From the IMG/VR virus record IMGVR_UViG_3300044961_000667: 64,000 nt of DNA; one strand, written 5' to 3'. The translations under genes were made by a program, and so were the position numbers. Source of the DNA: a virus. Its lineage: Duplodnaviria > Caudoviricetes. Positions 5,422-62,521 of this stretch are shown here, one piece after another; the stretch's first letter is position 1; each line of letters opens with the position of its first letter. The notes beneath the pieces are model-generated. The model saw only the letters and a program-made list of their open reading frames with translations, did not search any database and had not been told where the DNA came from.

Positions 5422-6210
5422 TCAGAAAGCCTTGTTGCCGTGCTTGAAGCCGCGCGCCCGGTTCTTCTCCAGCTTGGCCGCCACGATGCTCCACATGCGG
5501 TTGGCCGGGTCGAGCTTGTCGCACAGCGCCTCGCAGTCGACGATCAGCCGACCGAACTCTCGCTGCATCTCCTGCGCGTTCGGCGTCTCCGGCTTCCGGT
5601 ACGCCTCCATCAGCCGGAACGACGGCATCACCACCAGCCGCATCACCTGGGCGTAGAAGTGCTCCATCGAGAAGAGCCGCAGGTCGCGCTCCACCTTGTG
5701 CACCCCGACTCGCGTCAGCCCCGTGATGTTGTAGTACGCCAGCTGCGGATTCATCTCCAGCTTCCGCATCAGGTGCAGCACCCGAATCACCACGTCGGCG
5801 AACTCGATCTGCATCCGCTTCACCCACTCCGCCGTCGGCACCGGCTCACCATTCTCGCCGACCTGGCCGACCTCGAACTCCTCGCACGCTTCCGACGCCT
5901 CGCTGGCGCACAGGGCGAACTTCATCCCCAGCTCCAGCTTGTTGCTGAGATCGATGGTCCACCCGTTCATCTCGTTCACTTCCGTCACTTCGTTCGCGAT
6001 CTCGACGAGATTCACGCCAACGGTCGATTCGTTCTGCACTGGCACCTCCAGAGGATGTTGGACTTCCCACGGGAAACAACGAGCCAGCTGCGGGAAGGTC
6101 AGCCGGCTCAACATCTCGTTCTGTTGAGCCCTGCTGCTCCGCGAGTACAGGAGCTTCAGCTGCTCATCCGAGACTGCGCTCAGGTCCTGGGAAGCGTCTT
6201 CTTGGCCCAT
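5422..6210 (-). CDS. MazG-like NTP pyrophosphohydrolase
   Basis: SEASEACEEFE...EFADVVIRVLHL acidic motif; degenerate second half. Confidence 0.7.
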   Translation of the reverse strand: MGQEDASQDLSAVSDEQLKLLYSRSSRAQQNEMLSRLTFPQLARCFPWEVQHPLEVPVQNESTVGVNLVEIANEVTEVNEMNGWTIDLSNKLELGMKFALCASEASEACEEFEVGQVGENGEPVPTAEWVKRMQIEFADVVIRVLHLMRKLEMNPQLAYYNITGLTRVGVHKVERDLRLFSMEHFYAQVMRLVVMPSFRLMEAYRKPETPNAQEMQREFGRLIVDCEALCDKLDPANRMWSIVAAKLEKNRARGFKHGNKAF

Positions 6211-9080
6211 GGCCCGTTGACGACTACGGAATCCTCCGCGCTGTCAACGTCCTCGGGAGCCTCCGCATCAGCCATCTGCTCGTGCAGCTGGCCGAGGACT
6301 TCCGGGTCGAACGCCTCCGCGAGGAAGCGCGAGGGCTCGATGAAGCGACCGAACTTCTCCTGCACATGGGACAGGTGGACCTTGTCCTTCGCCCGCGTGA
6401 TGGCCACGTAGGCCAGCCGCCTCTCTTCCTGAATCTTGTCGGCCGCCATCGACTTGATGTGCGGCAGCATCCCTTCGCCCCAGCCCACGCCGAACACCCA
6501 CGTGAACTCCAGGCCCTTGGAGCGGTGGATCGTCATCAGCTTCACGGTGTCGCTGGAGAGCTGCGCCTCCTTGTCCTTCACCGTGCTCGCCTCGGCGATG
6601 AACTCCATGAACTCCTCGTACGTCCCGTACTGGCGAGCGATCTCAATCAGCTCCCGCACGTTCTCCGCCCGGTCGCTCACCACCTCGCCGCCCCGTTCCT
6701 CCGGCCGCTCGTAGTGCTGCTGCAGCGTCTGGTCGGGGTGCACCGTGCCGCGAACGTCCAGGATGTCCTCGATGATCTCCACCGGCGTCATCGCCTTCAA
6801 CGAGCGCAGGTGGGCGATGTCGTTCGCCAACGACCTGGCGCCACGCTCCATGTACGGCCGGCTGAAGCGACCGTTCAGCGTGCGCAGGGCATCACCGGTG
6901 CGCCCCTTCGCCGCCCGGTACTCGTTCCACCACGCCTTCCCGAGGTACCGCGGCGGCGTGTTGTACGCCCGCTCCAGCGCATCGTCGTCGTTCGGGTCGC
7001 CGATGAGCTTCAGGTACGCCACCACGTCCATGATCTCCGCCCGCCCGAAGAACGGCGCCGAGCCGTAGATGATGTACGGGATCCCCGTCTTCCGGAGCGC
7101 ATCCTCCACCGGCGCCGACTGGTAGTTGCTGCGGTACAGCACCGCGAAGTCCTTCGGCTTCATCCCGGCGTCGAGGCCAGCCTTGATCTGGTCCTTCACC
7201 CACTGCGCCTCAGCCCCGGTGTCTCGGTGAGACACGATCACCGGCTGCACGCCCTCCTCCCGCTGGGTGAACAGCTCCTTCGGGATGCGCTCGGTGTTCT
7301 TCTCGATCAGCCGATTGGCAGCCCGAACGATGACGTTCACCGAGCGGTAGTTCCTCGCGAGGAACAGCTTCTCGACGTTGGGCCGCTCCGCGAACTCCAG
7401 CATGAACTGCGGGACCGCGCCGCGCCAGGCGTAGATGCCCTGGCAGTTGTGCGTCACAATGCCGTCGGCCACGTAGGTGTGATCATTCTCAACCGTCAAC
7501 GAGTACACCGGGCCGCTGTACGACTCGTGCCTGATGACGAACGGAACGTACAAACTTCCGGTCACCCTGCTTCCATCCACCGACACCGCTTTCGACAGCG
7601 GCAACATCTCCATCCCGTCGAACAAGTTAACAGCCCGAACCACAGTGGGTCGGCGCGTCTGCAGATAGGCTTCGCCTTTCTGCCAGAGCGGATAGTTCAC
7701 ATCCTTGCGGTGGGCCGTCAACGCAGCCGCCGCTGCGTTCCGGTTGCTGCCCAGTTTCGACCAGAAGGCATCAAGCTGATCTTGGCTCAGTCGCAGATCG
7801 TTGGTGCTCGCCCTGAAGCACAAAGTCGGAACACCGAACGACCACGCTGTAACCATCTCGGCGAGAGCCGCCTGGTCTCTCGTGTCGTGAACGCTGAGAA
7901 TCCAAACCGCATCAGCCTTTTCCTGGTTGGCCCGGAGAACCACTCCAATGCGCTTGTGCTGGCTGGCCATTCGACCACTGGTGATGCCGATCCGGTAGTC
8001 GTCGCCGCGCCGCATCATGTAGACAACGTGTTTCTTCAACAGCTCGTCGCCAAACCGAACAACGCAGTGATGGTTCGGCGTGTACCGAGACTCCAACCCG
8101 TCCGGCGTACGAACAACAACCAACTCGCCGACGTGAGGCTTCACCATCACCCTCGACACCACGGAACCAGTTCTACGCAGATGGCTGTGCGCCATATCGT
8201 AGCTCACTACAACGTCTCCCTCGCGCACCTGCTCGATTGGCACCTGCTTCATCTCCGTTGGAACACCTTGCTTTCCCCGTCCCAGCGACTTGTACCGCTG
8301 CGTCACCACCGTCACCATCGTCCCCGGCGGCTGGCAGTCGTCGCCGATCATCATCAGGTTGCCGTCCTTCGTCGCCACCAGCTGAGCCAGCTCGATCTGC
8401 GCCTTGTTGTTGTCCTGGCACTCGTCGACCATCACGTAGCGGTAGCGCTCACGGACCTCCGCCCGCAGCCGCTCGTTCGACGAGAGCAGCTTCCACGCGT
8501 AGTAGAGCATGTCGTCGAAATCGAGCACCCGCTCTTCGTTCTTCCGCTTCTCGTACAGCGAGTAGAAGTCCGACATCGACGTCGCCTGGTGGTCGGACAG
8601 CAGCTGCTGCCGCATCTCCTCCGGGCCCATCAGCGAGTTCTTCGCCTTCGCGATGGCGATGATCACGTCCTCCGGCAGCCACTCCTCCGTGCGGTAGCCG
8701 AGGTCCTTGATGACGTTGATGATCATCGTCTTCTTGTTCTTCAGCACCGTGTAGCCGCCGTACCCGTTGTTCCGCAGCAGCGAGAAGCCGAAGCTGTGGA
8801 ACGTCGAGATCGTCGGCCGGCGCCCTCTCACGCCGAGGTTCTCCATCAGGTCGTCGAGGCGACCGTTCATCTCCTCCGCGGCGTTCTTGGTGAACGTCAC
8901 GGCGAGAATCTGGCTGTCGGGGATGCCGCGGGCGAGGAGAGCCACCACGCGGTGGATCAAGCACCTCGTCTTCCCCGCGCCTGGGCCGGCAATCACCAGG
9001 CACGGTCCATCGAAGTGCTCCGCCACCTTCTGTTGGGCCTCGTCGAGACCCGACAGAACCTTCTGCAGATCGTTGCTCAT
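6180..9080 (-). CDS. UvrD/PcrA/Rep family SF1 helicase containing an intein
   Basis: AGPGAGKT, VTFTKNAA, TFHSF, VDECQD, GDD/CQGIYAWRGA, NYRS, VLYRSN, TIHRSKGLEF, EERRLAYVAITRAK; RBS before ATG 9080. Confidence 0.93.
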   Translation of the reverse strand: MSNDLQKVLSGLDEAQQKVAEHFDGPCLVIAGPGAGKTRCLIHRVVALLARGIPDSQILAVTFTKNAAEEMNGRLDDLMENLGVRGRRPTISTFHSFGFSLLRNNGYGGYTVLKNKKTMIINVIKDLGYRTEEWLPEDVIIAIAKAKNSLMGPEEMRQQLLSDHQATSMSDFYSLYEKRKNEERVLDFDDMLYYAWKLLSSNERLRAEVRERYRYVMVDECQDNNKAQIELAQLVATKDGNLMMIGDDCQPPGTMVTVVTQRYKSLGRGKQGVPTEMKQVPIEQVREGDVVVSYDMAHSHLRRTGSVVSRVMVKPHVGELVVVRTPDGLESRYTPNHHCVVRFGDELLKKHVVYMMRRGDDYRIGITSGRMASQHKRIGVVLRANQEKADAVWILSVHDTRDQAALAEMVTAWSFGVPTLCFRASTNDLRLSQDQLDAFWSKLGSNRNAAAAALTAHRKDVNYPLWQKGEAYLQTRRPTVVRAVNLFDGMEMLPLSKAVSVDGSRVTGSLYVPFVIRHESYSGPVYSLTVENDHTYVADGIVTHNCQGIYAWRGAVPQFMLEFAERPNVEKLFLARNYRSVNVIVRAANRLIEKNTERIPKELFTQREEGVQPVIVSHRDTGAEAQWVKDQIKAGLDAGMKPKDFAVLYRSNYQSAPVEDALRKTGIPYIIYGSAPFFGRAEIMDVVAYLKLIGDPNDDDALERAYNTPPRYLGKAWWNEYRAAKGRTGDALRTLNGRFSRPYMERGARSLANDIAHLRSLKAMTPVEIIEDILDVRGTVHPDQTLQQHYERPEERGGEVVSDRAENVRELIEIARQYGTYEEFMEFIAEASTVKDKEAQLSSDTVKLMTIHRSKGLEFTWVFGVGWGEGMLPHIKSMAADKIQEERRLAYVAITRAKDKVHLSHVQEKFGRFIEPSRFLAEAFDPEVLGQLHEQMADAEAPEDVDSAEDSVVVNGPWAKKTLPRT
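7446..8336 (-). mobile_element. intein (297 aa) with GIY-YIG-like endonuclease in helicase motif III
   Basis: Starts CQPPGT, ends VYSLTVENDHTYVADGIVTHN, followed by Cys; internal VVYMMRRGDDYRIGIT; AT-richer codons. Confidence 0.9.
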
Positions 9081-9163
9081 TTGCTCTCCCTTGGTGCCAC
9101 CTGTTGCCCGTTGAGTGTCGGGGTCACCACCAAGCAGATGAAACCACCGTTTCTCCTGCTTTG

Positions 9164-10027
9164 TCAAGAGGAAGGCGGCTCCGGCGGCTTGTAGTTCAGC
9201 ACCACGATCTCCTCGACATCTCCGCGCTTCTCGTAGTGCGTGTTGATCGACCGCGGCGCCGTCACCGTCCGCACCTCGAACTTCGAGTACAGCGCCTTCA
9301 CCTTCGGGTGACTGCTGTTCGACAGCATCACCTTGACGCCGCGGTCCGTCAGGCGGGAGTACGTCTCCGCCAGCTTCTTGTGGTCGAGCAGCGAGAACTC
9401 ACCCGCGGTGTACGCCGTGAAGCTCGACGTCTTCGACACCGGAAGGTACGGCGGGTCCATGTAGACGAAGTCGCCTTCCTCCGCGTGCGTCAGCACCGCC
9501 TGGTAGGTCACCACGTCCAGCATCGTCCCCCGCAGAGCCTCGGAGCACGCCCGCAGGTTGTCGCGATCGCACACGGTCGGACGGTTCTTGAACTTGCCAG
9601 GCGGGACGTTGAAGCGGCCCTTGTCGTTGACCCGGTACAGGCCGTTGTAGCCCGTCTTGTTCAGGAAGATCATCCGCGCCGCACGCTGCTCTTCGGTCAA
9701 CGACCGCGGCATCTGCTCGCGCACCGAGTAGTAGTACTCGTCCCCGCCGGCAGTCCACGCCTGGTCGTGCTCGTCGAGCCGCTTCACCACGTCCTCGACC
9801 CGGTCTCGCACCATCTTGTACGACCAGATCAGCTCCTCGTTGACGTCGGAGAGCACCACCCGCTTGGCCGCCTTGAGCTTCCCGGCCGCAGCCAGCGAGT
9901 AGAACATCGCCCCTCCGCCGAGGAACGGCTCCATGTACGTGCCGAACTCGGCAGGTAGCATCCCGGCCAGGGTCTCCAACAACGCACCCTTGCCACCAAC
10001 CCACTTCAGAAACGGTCTCGCGCTCAA
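9164..10027 (-). CDS. dam: DNA adenine methyltransferase (Dam/D12 family)
   Basis: PFLKWVGGK, EPFLGGGA, DVNEELI, FLNKTGYNGLYRVN, YMDPPY. Confidence 0.92.
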   Translation of the reverse strand: MSARPFLKWVGGKGALLETLAGMLPAEFGTYMEPFLGGGAMFYSLAAAGKLKAAKRVVLSDVNEELIWSYKMVRDRVEDVVKRLDEHDQAWTAGGDEYYYSVREQMPRSLTEEQRAARMIFLNKTGYNGLYRVNDKGRFNVPPGKFKNRPTVCDRDNLRACSEALRGTMLDVVTYQAVLTHAEEGDFVYMDPPYLPVSKTSSFTAYTAGEFSLLDHKKLAETYSRLTDRGVKVMLSNSSHPKVKALYSKFEVRTVTAPRSINTHYEKRGDVEEIVVLNYKPPEPPSS

Positions 10028-10566
10028 GCTGGAATTCCTCCTTCGGCAGCTCTGTACCCCTCTCGCACCTTCGTCAAGATGTCAGGCTCCAATCGCCACA
10101 ACTTTTGGTAGCCGCGACACTTCACCGGCTCGATGGGACGCAGATCGGTCAACAGCCACCCGAACGGACCCACGAACCACTCCAGATCCATCTCCGTCGG
10201 CTTGAAGCCCTCCAGCAGCTTCACCTCCATGACGGTCTCGTCCTCGCTGACCCAGCGCTTCGTGTTGTCCAGCATGTCGGGCGAGTCCACCTCCGTCACG
10301 CAGCCCACGAGACGGCCAACGCCGATGATCGCCGAGTCGACGTGCGTCGCGTCCCTCCGCAGGATGTCTCGATGGGGCCCATTCGCGACAAACTGCTCCG
10401 CGTCAGGGTCCCACGCCTTCCCCGCGTGAATCGCGATGTGCTTCCCGTACATCCAGGATGGCGGCGTCCACGGCCTGTTCTCGATGCGCTTGAAACCCTG
10501 GGCCACCCAATGCGCCCAGGGCCGCCACAGCGTGAGGCCCATGATCGACGGATACAGAACGCTCAT
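10024..10566 (-). CDS. ASCH domain protein
   Basis: LTLWRPWA...GFKRIENRPW...IAIHAG and C-terminal PVKCRGYQKLW. Confidence 0.85.
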   Translation of the reverse strand: MSVLYPSIMGLTLWRPWAHWVAQGFKRIENRPWTPPSWMYGKHIAIHAGKAWDPDAEQFVANGPHRDILRRDATHVDSAIIGVGRLVGCVTEVDSPDMLDNTKRWVSEDETVMEVKLLEGFKPTEMDLEWFVGPFGWLLTDLRPIEPVKCRGYQKLWRLEPDILTKVREGYRAAEGGIPA

Positions 10567-11600
10567 CGCGGGAACTCCTGGATCTGAAGCTCGGCCGGCC
10601 ACTCAGCCGGAACGGCACCGTGGTGCTCCTTGAAGAGCACCGAGAAGTACGTCGGCTGGTCCTTCAACGCCTTGCCGTGCATCGGGCCCATGCGCCCGCA
10701 CAGATCGGAGTCGACGTTGCTGATCGGGTTGTCGCCCATCTGCTTCACGAAGGGCGTCACCTTCGCGGCCCTGCACTGCTCGACGATGGAGCGCGCCCAC
10801 GAGAGATCGAACGCTCTCGCCTTCGAGCCGCTCTCGCCACCGACGATGACCCAGTGCAGGCCCTGGCCCATCTTCACGTTCGGCACGAACTGGGCGGTCT
10901 TGTCCGCGCACGACGCGCAGAAGCTCTCGCTCTGCTTCGCCGTGGTGTTCGCCGCCTTCCAGTCGTACGCGCACTTCGAGCACTTCCACAGCTGCCCGAG
11001 CCACTTCGACAGGTCCAGCGGTCCCAGCAAGGGCTCGCACGACAGGAACCGCACCGCCGCGGGGACCGACAGCAGCAGCGGGATCCGGACGTCGGCAGCC
11101 TCCTGGTTCTCCACCGTCGTCCCGAGCCACACGTTGGGCGGCGGCGTTCCATCGACCCACGCCTGCAGCCAGTCGACGGTCTCCATCGGCACATCAGGAG
11201 TCCTGACGAACGCGTCGATCGCAGCCGACAGGTGGCGCTTGATGTTCTGCGGCCTCTTCGTCAACAAGAGCCAGTCCAGGTTGGGCGTGCTCCTGATCAG
11301 GTGGAACAGCTCCAGCCTCCACACGTCGGAGACTTCCTCGTCGAACACGTCGGAGAGGGACGAGCAGAAGACCCTGGGCCTCGTGCCGGCGAGCTTCGCC
11401 TTGCGATCCCACGACAACGGCTTCCGCCAGTTCGACGCGACCGTCCTTCTCCGCGGCGCTCCCTTGCCCCAGTTGCCGCCGTCGAACCGCTTGTTCCGCG
11501 TCTCGGCGTAGCAGTTCGTGCACCCGGCCGAGACCTTCGTGCACCCCTCCCATCCGTTGAACGTGGCATCGCACCAACTGATCGCAGTCGTGTCACCCAT
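10563..11600 (-). CDS. DUF5131 / phage Gp37Gp68 family (radical-SAM-like) protein
   Basis: TAISWCDATFNGWEGCTKVSAGCTNCYAE, VFCSSLSDVF, LLLTKRP, RFLSCEPLLG, WVIVGGESG, FVKQMG. Confidence 0.9.
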   Translation of the reverse strand: MGDTTAISWCDATFNGWEGCTKVSAGCTNCYAETRNKRFDGGNWGKGAPRRRTVASNWRKPLSWDRKAKLAGTRPRVFCSSLSDVFDEEVSDVWRLELFHLIRSTPNLDWLLLTKRPQNIKRHLSAAIDAFVRTPDVPMETVDWLQAWVDGTPPPNVWLGTTVENQEAADVRIPLLLSVPAAVRFLSCEPLLGPLDLSKWLGQLWKCSKCAYDWKAANTTAKQSESFCASCADKTAQFVPNVKMGQGLHWVIVGGESGSKARAFDLSWARSIVEQCRAAKVTPFVKQMGDNPISNVDSDLCGRMGPMHGKALKDQPTYFSVLFKEHHGAVPAEWPAELQIQEFPR

Positions 11601-24438: not shown

Positions 24439-25089
24439 TCAGTAGCCCCACCCGCTCCGGCGCTCTCGATCCCGACGGTACCGCAGGGTCTCCTCTTCCC
24501 AGCAGCCCATCCACGGCTTCAAGCCCTCGCCCTTGTTCAGGCGGTGCGTGAAGACACGCTTCAGCTTCGACATCTGTTCGAGGTTGTCCTCGCAGACGGT
24601 CGGCCAGATGTCGAAGTACGCCGAGTCGTACTTCGTGGTGGTCGGCGGCTTCCAGGTGAGGATGTCCTCACACACCACCTTCAGCTTGGCTGCCTCCGGC
24701 AGCGTCGCCTGGAGCGATGGCAGCACCACGTCGATGACGTCCTGGTACTTCTCGACGACGGTGACCGACTTCACGTCGGGCTTCTGCAACACCGGGATCA
24801 ACACCATCCCGATGCCGAGACCGCCGATGAGCGCGTCGCCCTTGAGCTGGCGGACCGCGAAGCTGTTCGACCGCCACTCGAACTGAGTGTCCGTCATCAT
24901 CAGGACACCGTTCACCGAAAGCCGGGCGTATGTCCCAGGCTCGACGAAGTCGTTGGGGTGGCCGAACGACGCACGCAGCCTCGTCCGGTCAGAGTCCTGC
25001 TTGGTGACCTCGAAGTGCTCGACCTTCGCGCTGCCCTTCTGTCCGGGCATCACGTACTTCGCCACGCTGGGCTTTTCGATTCGCATCAT
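24439..25089 (-). CDS. class I SAM-dependent transferase, spermidine-synthase-like fold
   Basis: LIGGLGIGM, VTVVEKYQDVI, YDSAYFDIWP. Confidence 0.75.
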   Translation of the reverse strand: MMRIEKPSVAKYVMPGQKGSAKVEHFEVTKQDSDRTRLRASFGHPNDFVEPGTYARLSVNGVLMMTDTQFEWRSNSFAVRQLKGDALIGGLGIGMVLIPVLQKPDVKSVTVVEKYQDVIDVVLPSLQATLPEAAKLKVVCEDILTWKPPTTTKYDSAYFDIWPTVCEDNLEQMSKLKRVFTHRLNKGEGLKPWMGCWEEETLRYRRDRERRSGWGY

Positions 25090-56216: not shown

Positions 56217-57356
56217 TCACCCCACGACTCGAATCGGGTTGGACTCCTCGACTTCCATGGGACCGCGCCAGAACGGGTTGATCCACATGAGCTTCCTCAG
56301 GCTGTGCTTCGGCCCGTGCGTCTGGTTGCGCCAGTGCCCCTGCACCAACGTCCGCACGTGGAGCGGACGGCTTTCGCCAGTCCCCTCAGACATGCGCTTC
56401 ACGCCACGGCCCAAGTAGATCCGCCGGCGAGGGTCGACGCCCTTCAGCTCCTCGCGGAGCCGGTCTTTCTTCTGACCAGGAGGCAGCTTGTCGAGCCGCG
56501 CCTTCATCTGACGCCACTGCTTGTTGCTGGCCTCCTCGAAGACGTCGGCTTCCGGGTGGTGCGTCGCGTAGAGCACCACGTTCATCGCCAGCATGAACAG
56601 CTGCTGCCACTTCGGCGCCAACCCATCCTGAGCGCGGTAGATGTACCGCAGCTCCTCGGGCATCTGCTGATCGAGGAACTCCTGCCGGTCGTCGAGGCAC
56701 TCCGTCACCTTCTTCCCCGGCGTCAGCAGCAGGTCGAAGGTGAACGTGAGCCAGTTCGGCAACCCGTCACTGAGGTACCCATCGGGCTCGCCAATGGCGC
56801 ACAACCGCCACGAGCGCCCGTTCCGCTCCGAGCCGTCCATGTTGAGCGACCTGGGCGACTCCGTGATGTACATCCCGACGAGCCCGCACTTCTTGCTCCC
56901 GTCGTAGAAGAAGTCGGCGCCTGCCTGCGGCGGCACCGCGATGTAGATGTTCGAGTACGGCAGCCGCAGGTCGTCCGAGGACACCCCACGCAGCTCCGTG
57001 TACTTGAAGCAGTCGGCCAGCCCTTCCGACAACTCGTAGACGCGACGCCCCGTCTTCCGGTGGCACAACCGCTGCCAGTTCTCCCCCATCGTCGAGTTGG
57101 CACCCGACTGCCCCACCAGCCTGACGATCTGCTGGTAGAACGCGTTCAGCTTCTTCGAGTGCATGATCATCCCTTCCAGGAAGAGGTGATCGACGCCTTC
57201 GGCAGCCGCGTCGAACATCGCGTCGAGCGTGGCCTGGAACTGGCGCGGGTTGGCGACCTCCAACACCGGCATGTCAGACGCGGCGATGCGCCGACCAACA
57301 GCACGGAACGGTGCGATCGTCTCTTCCATGCACTCGGAGTGCGTCTTCAAGCTCAT
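56217..57356 (-). CDS. conserved phage protein
   Basis: C-terminal VQGHWRNQTHGP...RKLMWINPFWRG. Confidence 0.7.
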   Translation of the reverse strand: MSLKTHSECMEETIAPFRAVGRRIAASDMPVLEVANPRQFQATLDAMFDAAAEGVDHLFLEGMIMHSKKLNAFYQQIVRLVGQSGANSTMGENWQRLCHRKTGRRVYELSEGLADCFKYTELRGVSSDDLRLPYSNIYIAVPPQAGADFFYDGSKKCGLVGMYITESPRSLNMDGSERNGRSWRLCAIGEPDGYLSDGLPNWLTFTFDLLLTPGKKVTECLDDRQEFLDQQMPEELRYIYRAQDGLAPKWQQLFMLAMNVVLYATHHPEADVFEEASNKQWRQMKARLDKLPPGQKKDRLREELKGVDPRRRIYLGRGVKRMSEGTGESRPLHVRTLVQGHWRNQTHGPKHSLRKLMWINPFWRGPMEVEESNPIRVVG

Positions 57357-59424: not shown

Positions 59425-59696
59425 GGCTCCTTCGGACGAATGGCCTTCAGGTACACCCGCACAGCCTCCGGCGGATTCCCGCCCTCCGTCAATCCGCGTC
59501 GTCGAATCTCCACCACCAGCTCAGCCTTCGAGTGCACGACGGTGCACGTCTGCAGGTTCCGAAGGCGATGTCCCACGGCCGTCATCAGCTCTTCTTCGAG
59601 TGCTTCCCCGTCGACCAGCACGCGCTCCAAGACGTGGTTGAGCCACCACATCTCGACGAGCTGCTCATCGGTGACCGGTACGCGGAGCGGGGCCAT
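59421..59696 (-). CDS. hypothetical protein
   Basis: 91 aa coupled ORF. Confidence 0.5.
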   Translation of the reverse strand: MAPLRVPVTDEQLVEMWWLNHVLERVLVDGEALEEELMTAVGHRLRNLQTCTVVHSKAELVVEIRRRGLTEGGNPPEAVRVYLKAIRPKEP

Positions 59697-60357
59697 TCGG
59701 AGATCTCCGCGGCCATCCTACCTCCGGCTTCTGGAACAGAAACCTCATGGACCGCTCGCTGACGACCTGATCAACCAGATTGAAACTGACCGACCCAGCC
59801 TGAACGATCTCCTCGCGCGTGTGCCAGCGGAACATCGACACGTCGTAGTCCCCACGCATCGCCTGCAGGTGGAGCACTCGCCTCCCGAGGAAGCCCGACG
59901 CTTCGACGTACCGCACGCCGCCGTGCCGGTACGTCTTGAGGCTCCACTTCGGCCGACGGAACGCGTTCAGGACGAACCTTCCTCCTGGCTTGAGGAGGCG
60001 CTCGACAGCAGCGAACGTCTGAGCGAGGTCGAGGTAACCGATCGCCTGCCGGCAGGCGACCAGGTTGAACTTGGGCGTGTACCGCAGAGCGCCGAACGCG
60101 CTGATCGCCTCCTCGGCCCGCCCTCGAACGCAGATGACATGCTCGTCATCGCACCGAGGGTTGAGATCGAGCAGCCACGCCACCTCTTGGCCACGCCTGA
60201 TCGCTTCTTTGGCCACTGCTCCGGTGCCACCGCAGAGGTCCAGGAGGTAGTCGCCGCCGACGTCGAAGTGCGCGAAGTCGAGCAACTCGCCCGGCTTCTC
60301 CAGCCACTTCGCGTACAGCACCTCGTACGTCTCGGTCGTGCACGCCAGCCGCATCAT
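59665..60357 (-). CDS. class I SAM-dependent methyltransferase
   Basis: LLDLCGGTG, LLDLN, GRAEE, FNLVAC, LLKPGGRFV. Confidence 0.85.
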   Translation of the reverse strand: MMRLACTTETYEVLYAKWLEKPGELLDFAHFDVGGDYLLDLCGGTGAVAKEAIRRGQEVAWLLDLNPRCDDEHVICVRGRAEEAISAFGALRYTPKFNLVACRQAIGYLDLAQTFAAVERLLKPGGRFVLNAFRRPKWSLKTYRHGGVRYVEASGFLGRRVLHLQAMRGDYDVSMFRWHTREEIVQAGSVSFNLVDQVVSERSMRFLFQKPEVGWPRRSPNGPAPRTGHR

Positions 60358-60965
60358 TCACGCACCGCCTTCTTCAAGAACTCGGTCGGATCGAGCAACC
60401 CCTGCGGGCGAGGCATCGTGAGACGCCACCACACCGGCTCGACCACGTCCGGCGCGTACAGCTCCAAGTGCAGCATGTCCATCGGCAGCCCCTTGTCGTG
60501 CACCAGCACCCTGGCCACCTGCCCGACTCGGTCTCCACGTCGAACGCGATCGCCGACACGAGCCGTCTTGCCGATCTCGACCTCTCCGTAGCAGACGACG
60601 CCGGAAGCGCCCTTCACCAGCACAGCGGCAGTGTCGTGCCACCACGGCGACTCGGCATCGATCCCGGTGAAGTCGACAACGGCTACCACCACGCCGTCCT
60701 CCACGGCCAACACCGGCTCGCCGAGGCGGCAGTACAGATCGACACCAGTGTGCACGTCGTACTTCCGCTGCGCACCGAAGGCCCCCTGGTGCGTCCCCTC
60801 GGGGACTTCGGGCTTCGACTCAGCCAGTGGCCACCGCCACTCGACGGCAGCGCTCGGCGTCCGCGTGGGGAGGTGTCGGGATTGGATACCCGAGGCGTTC
60901 ACCGACTGGCTCCCGGTCTCTGCCGCCGGGGCACCTTCCGCGCCTGACTTGACGCTTCCCATCAC
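60354..60965 (-). CDS. M23 family metallopeptidase
   Basis: HTGVDL, PVLAVEDGVV, GDRVRRGDRVGQV, MLHLELY. Confidence 0.85.
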   Translation of the reverse strand: MMGSVKSGAEGAPAAETGSQSVNASGIQSRHLPTRTPSAAVEWRWPLAESKPEVPEGTHQGAFGAQRKYDVHTGVDLYCRLGEPVLAVEDGVVVAVVDFTGIDAESPWWHDTAAVLVKGASGVVCYGEVEIGKTARVGDRVRRGDRVGQVARVLVHDKGLPMDMLHLELYAPDVVEPVWWRLTMPRPQGLLDPTEFLKKAVRE

Positions 60966-61000: not shown

Positions 61001-62254
61001 TCAAAAGGCATCGACGTCGTTGGAGTTCAGCACCGCCACGAAGCCGTGGCCCTCGATGTTGAAGGCGTGCCGCGGCAACGGGCGCTGGTTGTCCCGGAAC
61101 GTCGACGGCGGAGCGTACGGCTCCGTCGGGCACTGGTTCTCACCCAGCGGCTCTCCCGGAGCAGGGGCCTTCGTCTGGTACAGCATCTCGTGCAGGTGCA
61201 GGACGGCGTCGCCCTTGTGCTTGAACATCTCCAGCATGCGCACCATCAGCGGAGCGTTGAGCGACGGCTTGTTGCCACGGAACGTGTACGTCACCCCGGC
61301 TTCGTGATCGACGCGAGAGACGAACACGCACTCGTTCGCCGTCCACAGCCGCCCCTTCTCCCTCGGCGACACCAGAAAGCCACTCTCTCCCACGCGCACG
61401 GCGATGCCGCCGAAGACACGACTCGTCGTCCCCATTGGGTGGGAGAAGCGATCCCGGTACTTCTCGATGATGCGCTCCATGCGCTTCACCGCCGCCTCCA
61501 TTTCAAACCAGGGTGGGTCCTTCGGGTTCGGCTCCGCCTCAGTGCGGTAGAACCTGTCATTGATGGTAGCTTCGAGGTCCGAGTACATCCGGTCGAACCC
61601 CGCCACGTCTCCGATGCAGATCTCCGCGTCAGCCCGGTAGATGTCGCTGTGACCGTCCGGATAGATCAGCCGTTTCTGCCGGAGGTCGGAGAAGTCGTTC
61701 GCCACCACCACGTTGCAGTGCGCCTTGAAAAGCGTCTGGTACGCAGCGGCCAGTGTCTCCTGCGTCGTTGAGCCGGAGGTCATCTTGCAGCCGATGAGCG
61801 TGAGCTTTGGGTTCAGCTTTTTCATCCGGTCGATGACGCGCGGTACGAGGATGAACGGGATGAGCTGCTCCGCTCCTTCGGTGAAGCCCTCGGTGGGCAT
61901 CTTCCCCTTGAAGGGTGCCTTCGGAATCCAGTTCACGACGGCAGCGGCCATCACGGCGGCGTCCACCTTCGGTGCCAGCTCGTAGCACTGCTCCGCGTAG
62001 GACTCGTAGCCGGTGTGAATCTTCCGATGGAACAGAGCCGAGACCGGTGCGCGGTGCGCGCGGTACTCCGCCCCCATCCGTTCGTTCACGGTCGCCTTGT
62101 CGAGGGTGTCCGGAAGCAAGAGTGTCACTTCGTGGTTCCGAGCGTGCAACCACGCGGCGAACTTCACCGCCCAGATGCCTCTGATGCGGTTGCCGACGAG
62201 CTTGTTGTCGTCGAGCTTCCCGTACACCGTTCCTGCCGTCACCAGCACTTTCAT
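61001..62254 (-). CDS. CoaB (phosphopantothenoylcysteine synthetase)-like domain fused to a class II aldolase-like domain
   Basis: VLVTAG...LD...VGN..RG, EVTLL, AAAVVNW, IGCK, VVVAND; then GGIAVR, FLVSP, KPSLN, AVLHLH, GHGFVA. Confidence 0.7.
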   Translation of the reverse strand: MKVLVTAGTVYGKLDDNKLVGNRIRGIWAVKFAAWLHARNHEVTLLLPDTLDKATVNERMGAEYRAHRAPVSALFHRKIHTGYESYAEQCYELAPKVDAAVMAAAVVNWIPKAPFKGKMPTEGFTEGAEQLIPFILVPRVIDRMKKLNPKLTLIGCKMTSGSTTQETLAAAYQTLFKAHCNVVVANDFSDLRQKRLIYPDGHSDIYRADAEICIGDVAGFDRMYSDLEATINDRFYRTEAEPNPKDPPWFEMEAAVKRMERIIEKYRDRFSHPMGTTSRVFGGIAVRVGESGFLVSPREKGRLWTANECVFVSRVDHEAGVTYTFRGNKPSLNAPLMVRMLEMFKHKGDAVLHLHEMLYQTKAPAPGEPLGENQCPTEPYAPPSTFRDNQRPLPRHAFNIEGHGFVAVLNSNDVDAF

Positions 62255-62257
62255 GAC

Positions 62258-62521
62258 CTACTCCTCGAACTCGTCGTGAAGCTGCTTCAGCGTGGCCCCC
62301 AGCGTGTCGCCGGGGATGTACGGCAGGTCGTGCTCGCCCTCGATGAACTCGGTCGTGCCGTCCTCGAAGACGATCGAGTGAAGCTGCAACACGAGCGTGT
62401 CGTCGCCGAAGTCCGACGAGATCGAGCACTCGATGCGCTTCACCTTCTTCCCGTACAGCTTCTCCAGATCGATGTTGCTGTACCGATCTCCGGGCTGAAC
62501 CTGGATGTCGACGAGCTTCAC
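62258..62521 (-). CDS. hypothetical protein
   Basis: GTG start overlapping the upstream stop. Confidence 0.55.
   Translation of the reverse strand: MKLVDIQVQPGDRYSNIDLEKLYGKKVKRIECSISSDFGDDTLVLQLHSIVFEDGTTEFIEGEHDLPYIPGDTLGATLKQLHDEFEE

Follow-up and report, generated by a model that had tools for sequence, protein, structure and literature searches.

The 417-aa gene described here is a genuine fusion of a CoaB-like ligase domain and a metal-binding, aldolase-like domain, and its family is found mostly in uncultured huge phages. Together with a SAM methyltransferase encoded close by, the fusion very probably constitutes a real, near-obligate module of three activities. Positions refer to the window, the whole 64,000-nucleotide stretch of phage DNA that was analysed. 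The initial annotation had given the boundaries of the gene correctly; the gene is read from the minus strand (Table 1). It had also proposed a CoaB-like N-terminus and a class II aldolase-like C-terminus, and had named failure of profile searches to recover either as an outcome that would count against it: profile searches and an AF2 model of the protein (pLDDT 94.2, pTM 0.92) recover both.

Table 1. Features of the fusion locus in the window
Feature	Position	Strand	Basis
Class I SAM methyltransferase, 230 aa, ATGA overlap with the M23-like gene	59665..60357	minus	profile, linkage
M23-fold Zn protein, accessory	60354..60962	minus	profile, alignment
Fusion ORF P0001, CoaB-like and class II aldolase-fold domains, 417 aa	61001..62254	minus	sequence, Pfam, AF2 model
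CoaB/PPCS-fold domain, residues 1-236	61547..62254	minus	Pfam, profile, Foldseek, structure match
Truncated class II aldolase-fold domain, residues ~245-417	61004..61522	minus	structure match, family alignment
GAGGAG ribosome-binding site (6 nt 5' of the start); stop codon of the preceding 87-aa gene (3 nt 5' of the start)	62255..62266	minus	sequence

The window appears to be part of a large phage: its genes lie nearly all on one strand and include those for DnaB, a DnaC-like loader, UvrD, a Dam-type methylase, a sliding clamp and a ligase. An Rfam search of the window gave no match, and promoter and terminator scans gave hits at chance level only. Among its other minus-strand genes, the UvrD helicase gene (6180-9167) probably contains an intein (weak Intein_splicing match, residues 276-544), a 216-aa protein (24439-25089) has a methyltransferase-like glycine motif and is without Pfam match, and a 379-aa protein (56217-57356), adjoining a DEDD exonuclease, is AcrVA2-like (PF26125) according to the contig record and had no match in our Pfam scan.

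The N-terminal domain of the fusion matches Pfam DFP (E 5.8e-14), the family profile matches 2gk4, 4qji and 5int, and every top Foldseek match is a CoaB/PPCS structure; residues 1-236 of the model superpose on 2gk4 with a Z-score of 22.8 (rmsd 3.4, 203 residues aligned). A CoaC flavoprotein part is absent, as the initial annotation had stated. In an alignment with M. smegmatis CoaB, the domain retains the loop lysine K118, K157 and the AND motif (N186-D187). The catalytic Asn of CoaB is strictly conserved (human N59; PMC12985681) and is kept as N22 in 117 of 118 clade A sequences, where it aligns with the Asn of the NRSSG motif of M. smegmatis 4qji. Equally strictly conserved in CoaB is the metal-binding Asp (M. 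smegmatis D281, PMC7794376; human D183, PMC12985681), and this position is Asp in 10/10 canonical phage CoaBs, but Asn (N108) in all 199 aligned family sequences (118/118 of clade A and 81/81 of clade B); NTP activation itself is therefore uncertain. M. smegmatis R207, the Arg needed for the cysteine step of CoaB, is altered too: its equivalent is K18 in 118/118 clade A sequences, a conservative change. The SSGK stretch, which in CoaB holds the phosphate of the substrate, has changed, in a different way in each clade; NxSSGK reads NRxRGxW in the fusion. Judged from the alignments, the active-site Asn, the lysines and several family-specific pocket residues are invariant or close to it among the 118 sequences, which share about 45-60% identity. 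The fusion stays below the NCBIfam cut-offs for CoaB/CoaBC (46.7 against 265, 39.4 against 217 and 37.1 against 220); this equivalog test is harsh on phage proteins, since a canonical-looking phage CoaB (L136) misses it as well (142 against 265). Taken together, the ligase site is conserved but altered: the domain would act like CoaB at most and does not belong to CoaB. Literature searches gave no second activity for the CoaB fold.

The C-terminal domain spans about 170 aa rather than the 145 aa first assigned to it. Residues 248-417 of the model match the fuculose-phosphate aldolase FucA (2opi) with a Z-score of 13.9 (rmsd 2.8, 146 aligned), and PF00596 is matched by 24 of 44 family domains, the domain of the window protein itself having no Pfam match. 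The His triad H353/H355/H403 is invariant in the family, and so are R298, K300 and D388. In FucA, Glu73 and Tyr113 are both essential (PMC11841055). In profile alignments, the Glu73 position is occupied by N333, a deletion of about 25 residues removes the Tyr113 segment, and the C-terminal helices are missing as well; of the FucA phosphate pocket (N29/T43/G44/S71/S72), a Ser/Thr at S71 is all that clade A retains. With both catalytic residues and most of the phosphate pocket lost, FucA chemistry is unlikely, and the ordinary action on sugar phosphates that the initial annotation associated with this fold is not supported here; in space, another residue may stand in for the Glu, as in POD. Three-His class II folds without a sequence-conserved Glu73 do non-aldol chemistry (PMC11841055); since decarboxylases and an Fe(II) dioxygenase are built on this fold, a metal-dependent non-aldol step is inferred for the fusion as well. 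Flavoprotein-aldolase fusions of Bacillota are structural neighbours of the domain in the Atlas.

The methyltransferase is the one fixed partner of the fusion. It is present in 53 of 71 clade A locus groups, always on the same strand and in 46 cases within 1 kb, and in 31 of the 32 groups that have at least 2 kb of sequence on both sides; all 18 intact clade B loci have it adjacent or fused, the triple-domain fusions being P0319, P0323, P0325-P0327, L180 and L181. Reciprocally, 14 of 15 viral methyltransferase loci carry the fusion and the remaining locus ends 0.4 kb downstream, while 18/18 related phage records without the fusion also lack the methyltransferase. Pairwise distances of the ligase domain correlate with those of the methyltransferase (rho 0.85 overall; 0.50 and 0.61 when each clade is taken alone), to which shared descent contributes. 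The enzyme has a class I fold with an acidic residue after strand 2 in addition to motif I; its closest folds are CypM (Z 21.8, rmsd 2.1, 197 aligned), YunM, CcbJ and DesVI, not those of the DNA type, and the pocket residues Y11, Y15, Q104, Y108, E152 and H163 are conserved across the clades. A tightly linked methyltransferase of small-molecule-type fold supports the small-molecule pathway that had been suggested from the sequence. Complex prediction for fusion and methyltransferase gave a score of 0.00, which counts neither for nor against an interaction.

All neighbours named in the initial annotation exist, but neither the YkgJ protein (3/32 loci) nor the P-loop kinase (1/32) recurs as a conserved neighbour, and the M23-like gene between fusion and methyltransferase had been overlooked. 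The latter is found in 9/32 clade A loci (7/24 genomes) and was rejected as a core part of the module, as were the YkgJ protein, the kinase and an SDR (2/32 loci). In all ten aligned M23-like proteins the zinc ligands (HxxxD and HxH) are invariant and both catalytic His are replaced, by Glu and Met (YGE, MxH), the roles of these residues being those of LytM. M23-like domains also occur fused to a Nudix-like domain (L103:1868-2890), to the methyltransferase (L001:11168-12271) or to a Cys-rich C-terminal domain (L201:2675-3805), and may be something other than a lysin. A different neighbourhood recurs within 10 kb of the fusion in L003, L006, L033, L012 and others, an island with PncB-, NadE- and PncA-like genes that also carries vWA, PP2C-like and kinase genes (those three identified by eye).

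In total, 274 close homologues of the fusion were found, of which the best 120 are nearly all full length; in the 50% library, 215 representatives have E < 1e-30. The family has two clades: A, with the window protein, and B, which includes the triple fusions. In an unrooted tree without cellular CoaBs, a long branch (support 100/100) separates both from the canonical CoaBs of phages. Clade A was found in 14 IMG/VR and 78 metagenome loci and in one of 185,579 GTDB genomes, on a 3.6-kb contig; clade B adds 19 further viral loci. Atlas clusters of the family are 86-96% viral, and the longest fusion-bearing contig has 200,091 bp. No cultured phage has the fusion, the sole full-length INPHARED match being the uncultured LR745208; PHROG has no family for it and BFVD no full-length match. 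A search for longer fusions (773-2205 aa) found none, which is weak evidence. In agreement with the initial annotation, which knew of no described enzyme with this fusion, literature searches, with subscription journals outside their coverage and including a term search of a jumbo-phage review (PMC7824862), returned no description of the fusion or of the pair.

Some loci depart from this pattern. In L013/L014/L089:10001-10828 the fusion gene breaks after about 72 codons and enters an unrelated membrane-protein frame, with the methyltransferase and M23-like genes upstream looking intact, and in L038:3610-5435 it is split by an insertion of about 680 bp that contains two frames and may be an intron or a mobile element. 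A different type of CoaB-like and class II aldolase fusion, of 420-470 aa, is encoded in L147:946-2214, L160:15365-16702, L205:3041-4441 and L206:3489-4772. In these proteins the metal Asp is present and the catalytic Asn motif is missing, and none is linked to a methyltransferase of the family described above.

None of the 28 viral records that carry the fusion has CoaC (13 of them are at least 90% complete; the window's own genome is not among them), and CoaE is present in only one of 13 carrier genomes. Canonical CoA synthesis is therefore unlikely, although CoaC could come from the host. Given also the replaced metal Asp and the missed NCBIfam cut-offs, the original statement that the gene does not serve CoA synthesis stands, but it cut the link to CoA too fully, as domain shuffling repeatedly ties the module to CoaB, CoaC and CoaD. 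CoaD-like genes neighbour the fusion in just two of 32 loci; CoaD or CoaD/CoaE-like genes lie near it in L011, L062 and L096, and the CoaD of L011, 0.2 kb downstream, is above the TIGR01510 cut-off. In L062:3985-5196 and from L096:20662 onward, a CoaD-like nucleotidyltransferase is fused to a weak CoaE-like kinase domain. In L162, an M23-like gene, the methyltransferase and a canonical CoaB precede a fusion in which the aldolase domain (40% identity to that of the window) stands behind CoaC; L162 is a single genome, possibly a recombinant of no significance. The upstream gene, considered as a split-off domain of the fusion type, proved to be the canonical CoaB. Since L162 carries both, plain substitution of the aldolase domain for CoaC was rejected. 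In comparison with the syntenic phage L096, CoaB and CoaC::aldolase (L162:9291-11068) take the place of an SDR and the usual fusion. Elsewhere, CoaC fused to an M23-like domain lies beside canonical CoaB in seven phages, and an M23-like gene lies near CoaB in two more; this set is possibly a CoA salvage or repair module, and papers describing it were not found. The seven, with replaced catalytic His in the M23-like domain, are L129, L136, L142, L144, L145, L146 and L152 (at about 8600-10600 in most); L135 and L159 were also noted for a canonical-looking CoaB with an M23-like module. CoaC is present in 9/10 phages with canonical CoaB.

The reading that we favour, tentatively and at somewhat less than even odds, is that fusion and methyltransferase make or remodel a methylated relative of a pantothenoyl amide or of pantetheine, as a side branch of CoA metabolism and not CoA itself. 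Judging by its fold and the residues kept, the CoaB-like domain would use CTP or ATP to activate an acid that is anionic and probably phosphorylated, and would then form an amide; since its acid and metal sites are rebuilt, the substrates would not be the canonical ones. The three-His domain may then carry out a non-aldol step (decarboxylation, elimination or oxidation) on the substrate or product of the ligase, held by the invariant Arg/Lys residues, and the methyltransferase could add a methyl group to that molecule, at an amine or a thiol. The purpose, at a guess, might be cofactor-level take-over of the host or counter-defence. A bolder version, which we regard as possible but doubtful, is that huge phages use an Asp-less CoaB-fold ligase and a minimal three-His domain with new chemistry to produce a methylated analogue of CoA or pantetheine, or a related new metabolite, that counters cofactor-directed host defence or redirects host acyl metabolism. 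Two analogies were also considered, a de novo route to pantoate (aldolase, C-methyltransferase and SDR) and an ergothioneine-like logic, either of which the module might conceivably follow. Against a CoA side branch, NAD-salvage genes are commoner neighbours of the fusion than CoA genes.

Those neighbours would be explained if the module processed a metabolite or immune signal derived from NAD or ADP-ribose, which is unlikely on balance. The CoaB-fold domain would then bind a dinucleotide instead of an NTP-metal complex, which would account for the change from Asp to Asn, the metal domain would cleave or rearrange the ribose, and the methyltransferase would cap the product. In 12-14 of 53 fusion loci, from both clades, NadE, PncA and PncB are encoded no more than 10 kb away, compared with one of 34 control loci that are not lineage-matched, and genes for macro-like, ADP-ribosylglycohydrolase and KptA-like proteins recur nearby. 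However, about three quarters of the loci, including that of the window, are without NAD-gene neighbour, and there is no enrichment at the genome level, NAPRTase being present in 9/18 fusion genomes and 7/12 others; the proximity may reflect a shared accessory island. Synthesis of a modified nucleotide or DNA base, as proposed in the initial annotation, is improbable, even though the family is mostly phage-borne, TK, dNK and NT5C lie near some loci and CoaB folds bind CTP. DNA-modification genes do not recur as neighbours, HMUDK was found in 1/18 genomes and QueC-profile matches in 4/18, two of them at NadE positions (these searches cover only two known pathways), the methyltransferase fold is not a DNA-type one, and one triple fusion sits on a bacterial-looking 303-kb contig. 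We assign a comparably low probability to modification of a macromolecule, whether tRNA, peptide or protein, for instance through ligation of a small acid and N-methylation: the top fold matches of the methyltransferase include the peptide N-methyltransferases CypM, YunM and CgnL, and RtcB and RNA ligase genes lie near some loci, but the loci show no linked precursor peptide, RNA or target gene that is conserved, and many small-molecule enzymes belong to the same fold class.

Two further readings concern the ligase domain itself and are both very improbable. If the protein were an ordinary CoaB that raised CoA synthesis and its metal domain acted in the stead of CoaC, this would fit the Pfam DFP match above cut-off and the lack of CoaC in fusion genomes when compared with phages that have canonical CoaB; such a role is at odds with the replacement of both the metal Asp and the Arg207 equivalent, with the low NCBIfam scores, with the long, fully supported branch, with the single chain of L162 that contains CoaC as well as the metal domain, and with a methyltransferase that would be superfluous to CoA synthesis. 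The universal loss of the metal Asp and the exchange of the domain for CoaC in L162 could suggest a non-catalytic binding or scaffold domain, leaving the metal domain and the methyltransferase as the only enzymes, but the near-invariance of its active-site Asn, lysines and pocket residues argues against this.

Whatever the product, this large and strongly conserved family, with its rebuilt active site and single constant partner, offers a clearly delimited place to look for new enzyme chemistry, and phage genes of this kind that are labelled 'DFP' or 'phosphopantothenate-cysteine ligase' should be left out of counts of CoA auxiliary metabolic genes. Should the product be a cofactor analogue that serves in phage-host conflict, the idea of NAD reconstitution would extend to another cofactor.

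All parts of the module are known folds. With CoaB/PPCS (PF04127; monofunctional S. pneumoniae 2gk4, M. smegmatis 4qji/6th2, yeast Cab2) the fusion shares the fold, the catalytic Asn, the KxK-loop lysine, the PK and GxK motifs of the eukaryotic/streptococcal type and the AND motif; it differs in the metal Asn, in Lys for Arg207, in the rewritten SSGK and in falling below equivalog cut-offs, and, in genomes without CoaC, it carries a metal domain and is closely linked to a methyltransferase. The phage module of CoaB and CoaC::M23-like has a CoaB-fold ligase and the M23-like family in common with the fusion module and has recombined with it in L162, but has canonical CoaB residues and CoaC, and the partner methyltransferase in 0/9 genomes. 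The class II aldolase/adducin family (PF00596: FucA, MtnB, OtnC/YgbL, HMPD decarboxylase, pyruvic oxime dioxygenase) has the same three-His site and PY-x-x-x-GT loop, with Z-scores of 11.5-13.9 to FucA, YgbL, 2irp and 2z7b; in the fusion, Asn stands for Glu73, the Tyr113 segment (about 25 residues) and the C-terminal helices are gone, and invariant Arg/Lys residues replace the phosphate pocket. The partner methyltransferase, which has no NCBIfam or PHROG family match, has the beta-sheet cap and N-terminal tyrosines of CypM, YunM, CcbJ, DesVI/TylM1 and PsmD (Z 19-22), yet shares only 16-21% identity with them and has a conserved pocket of its own.
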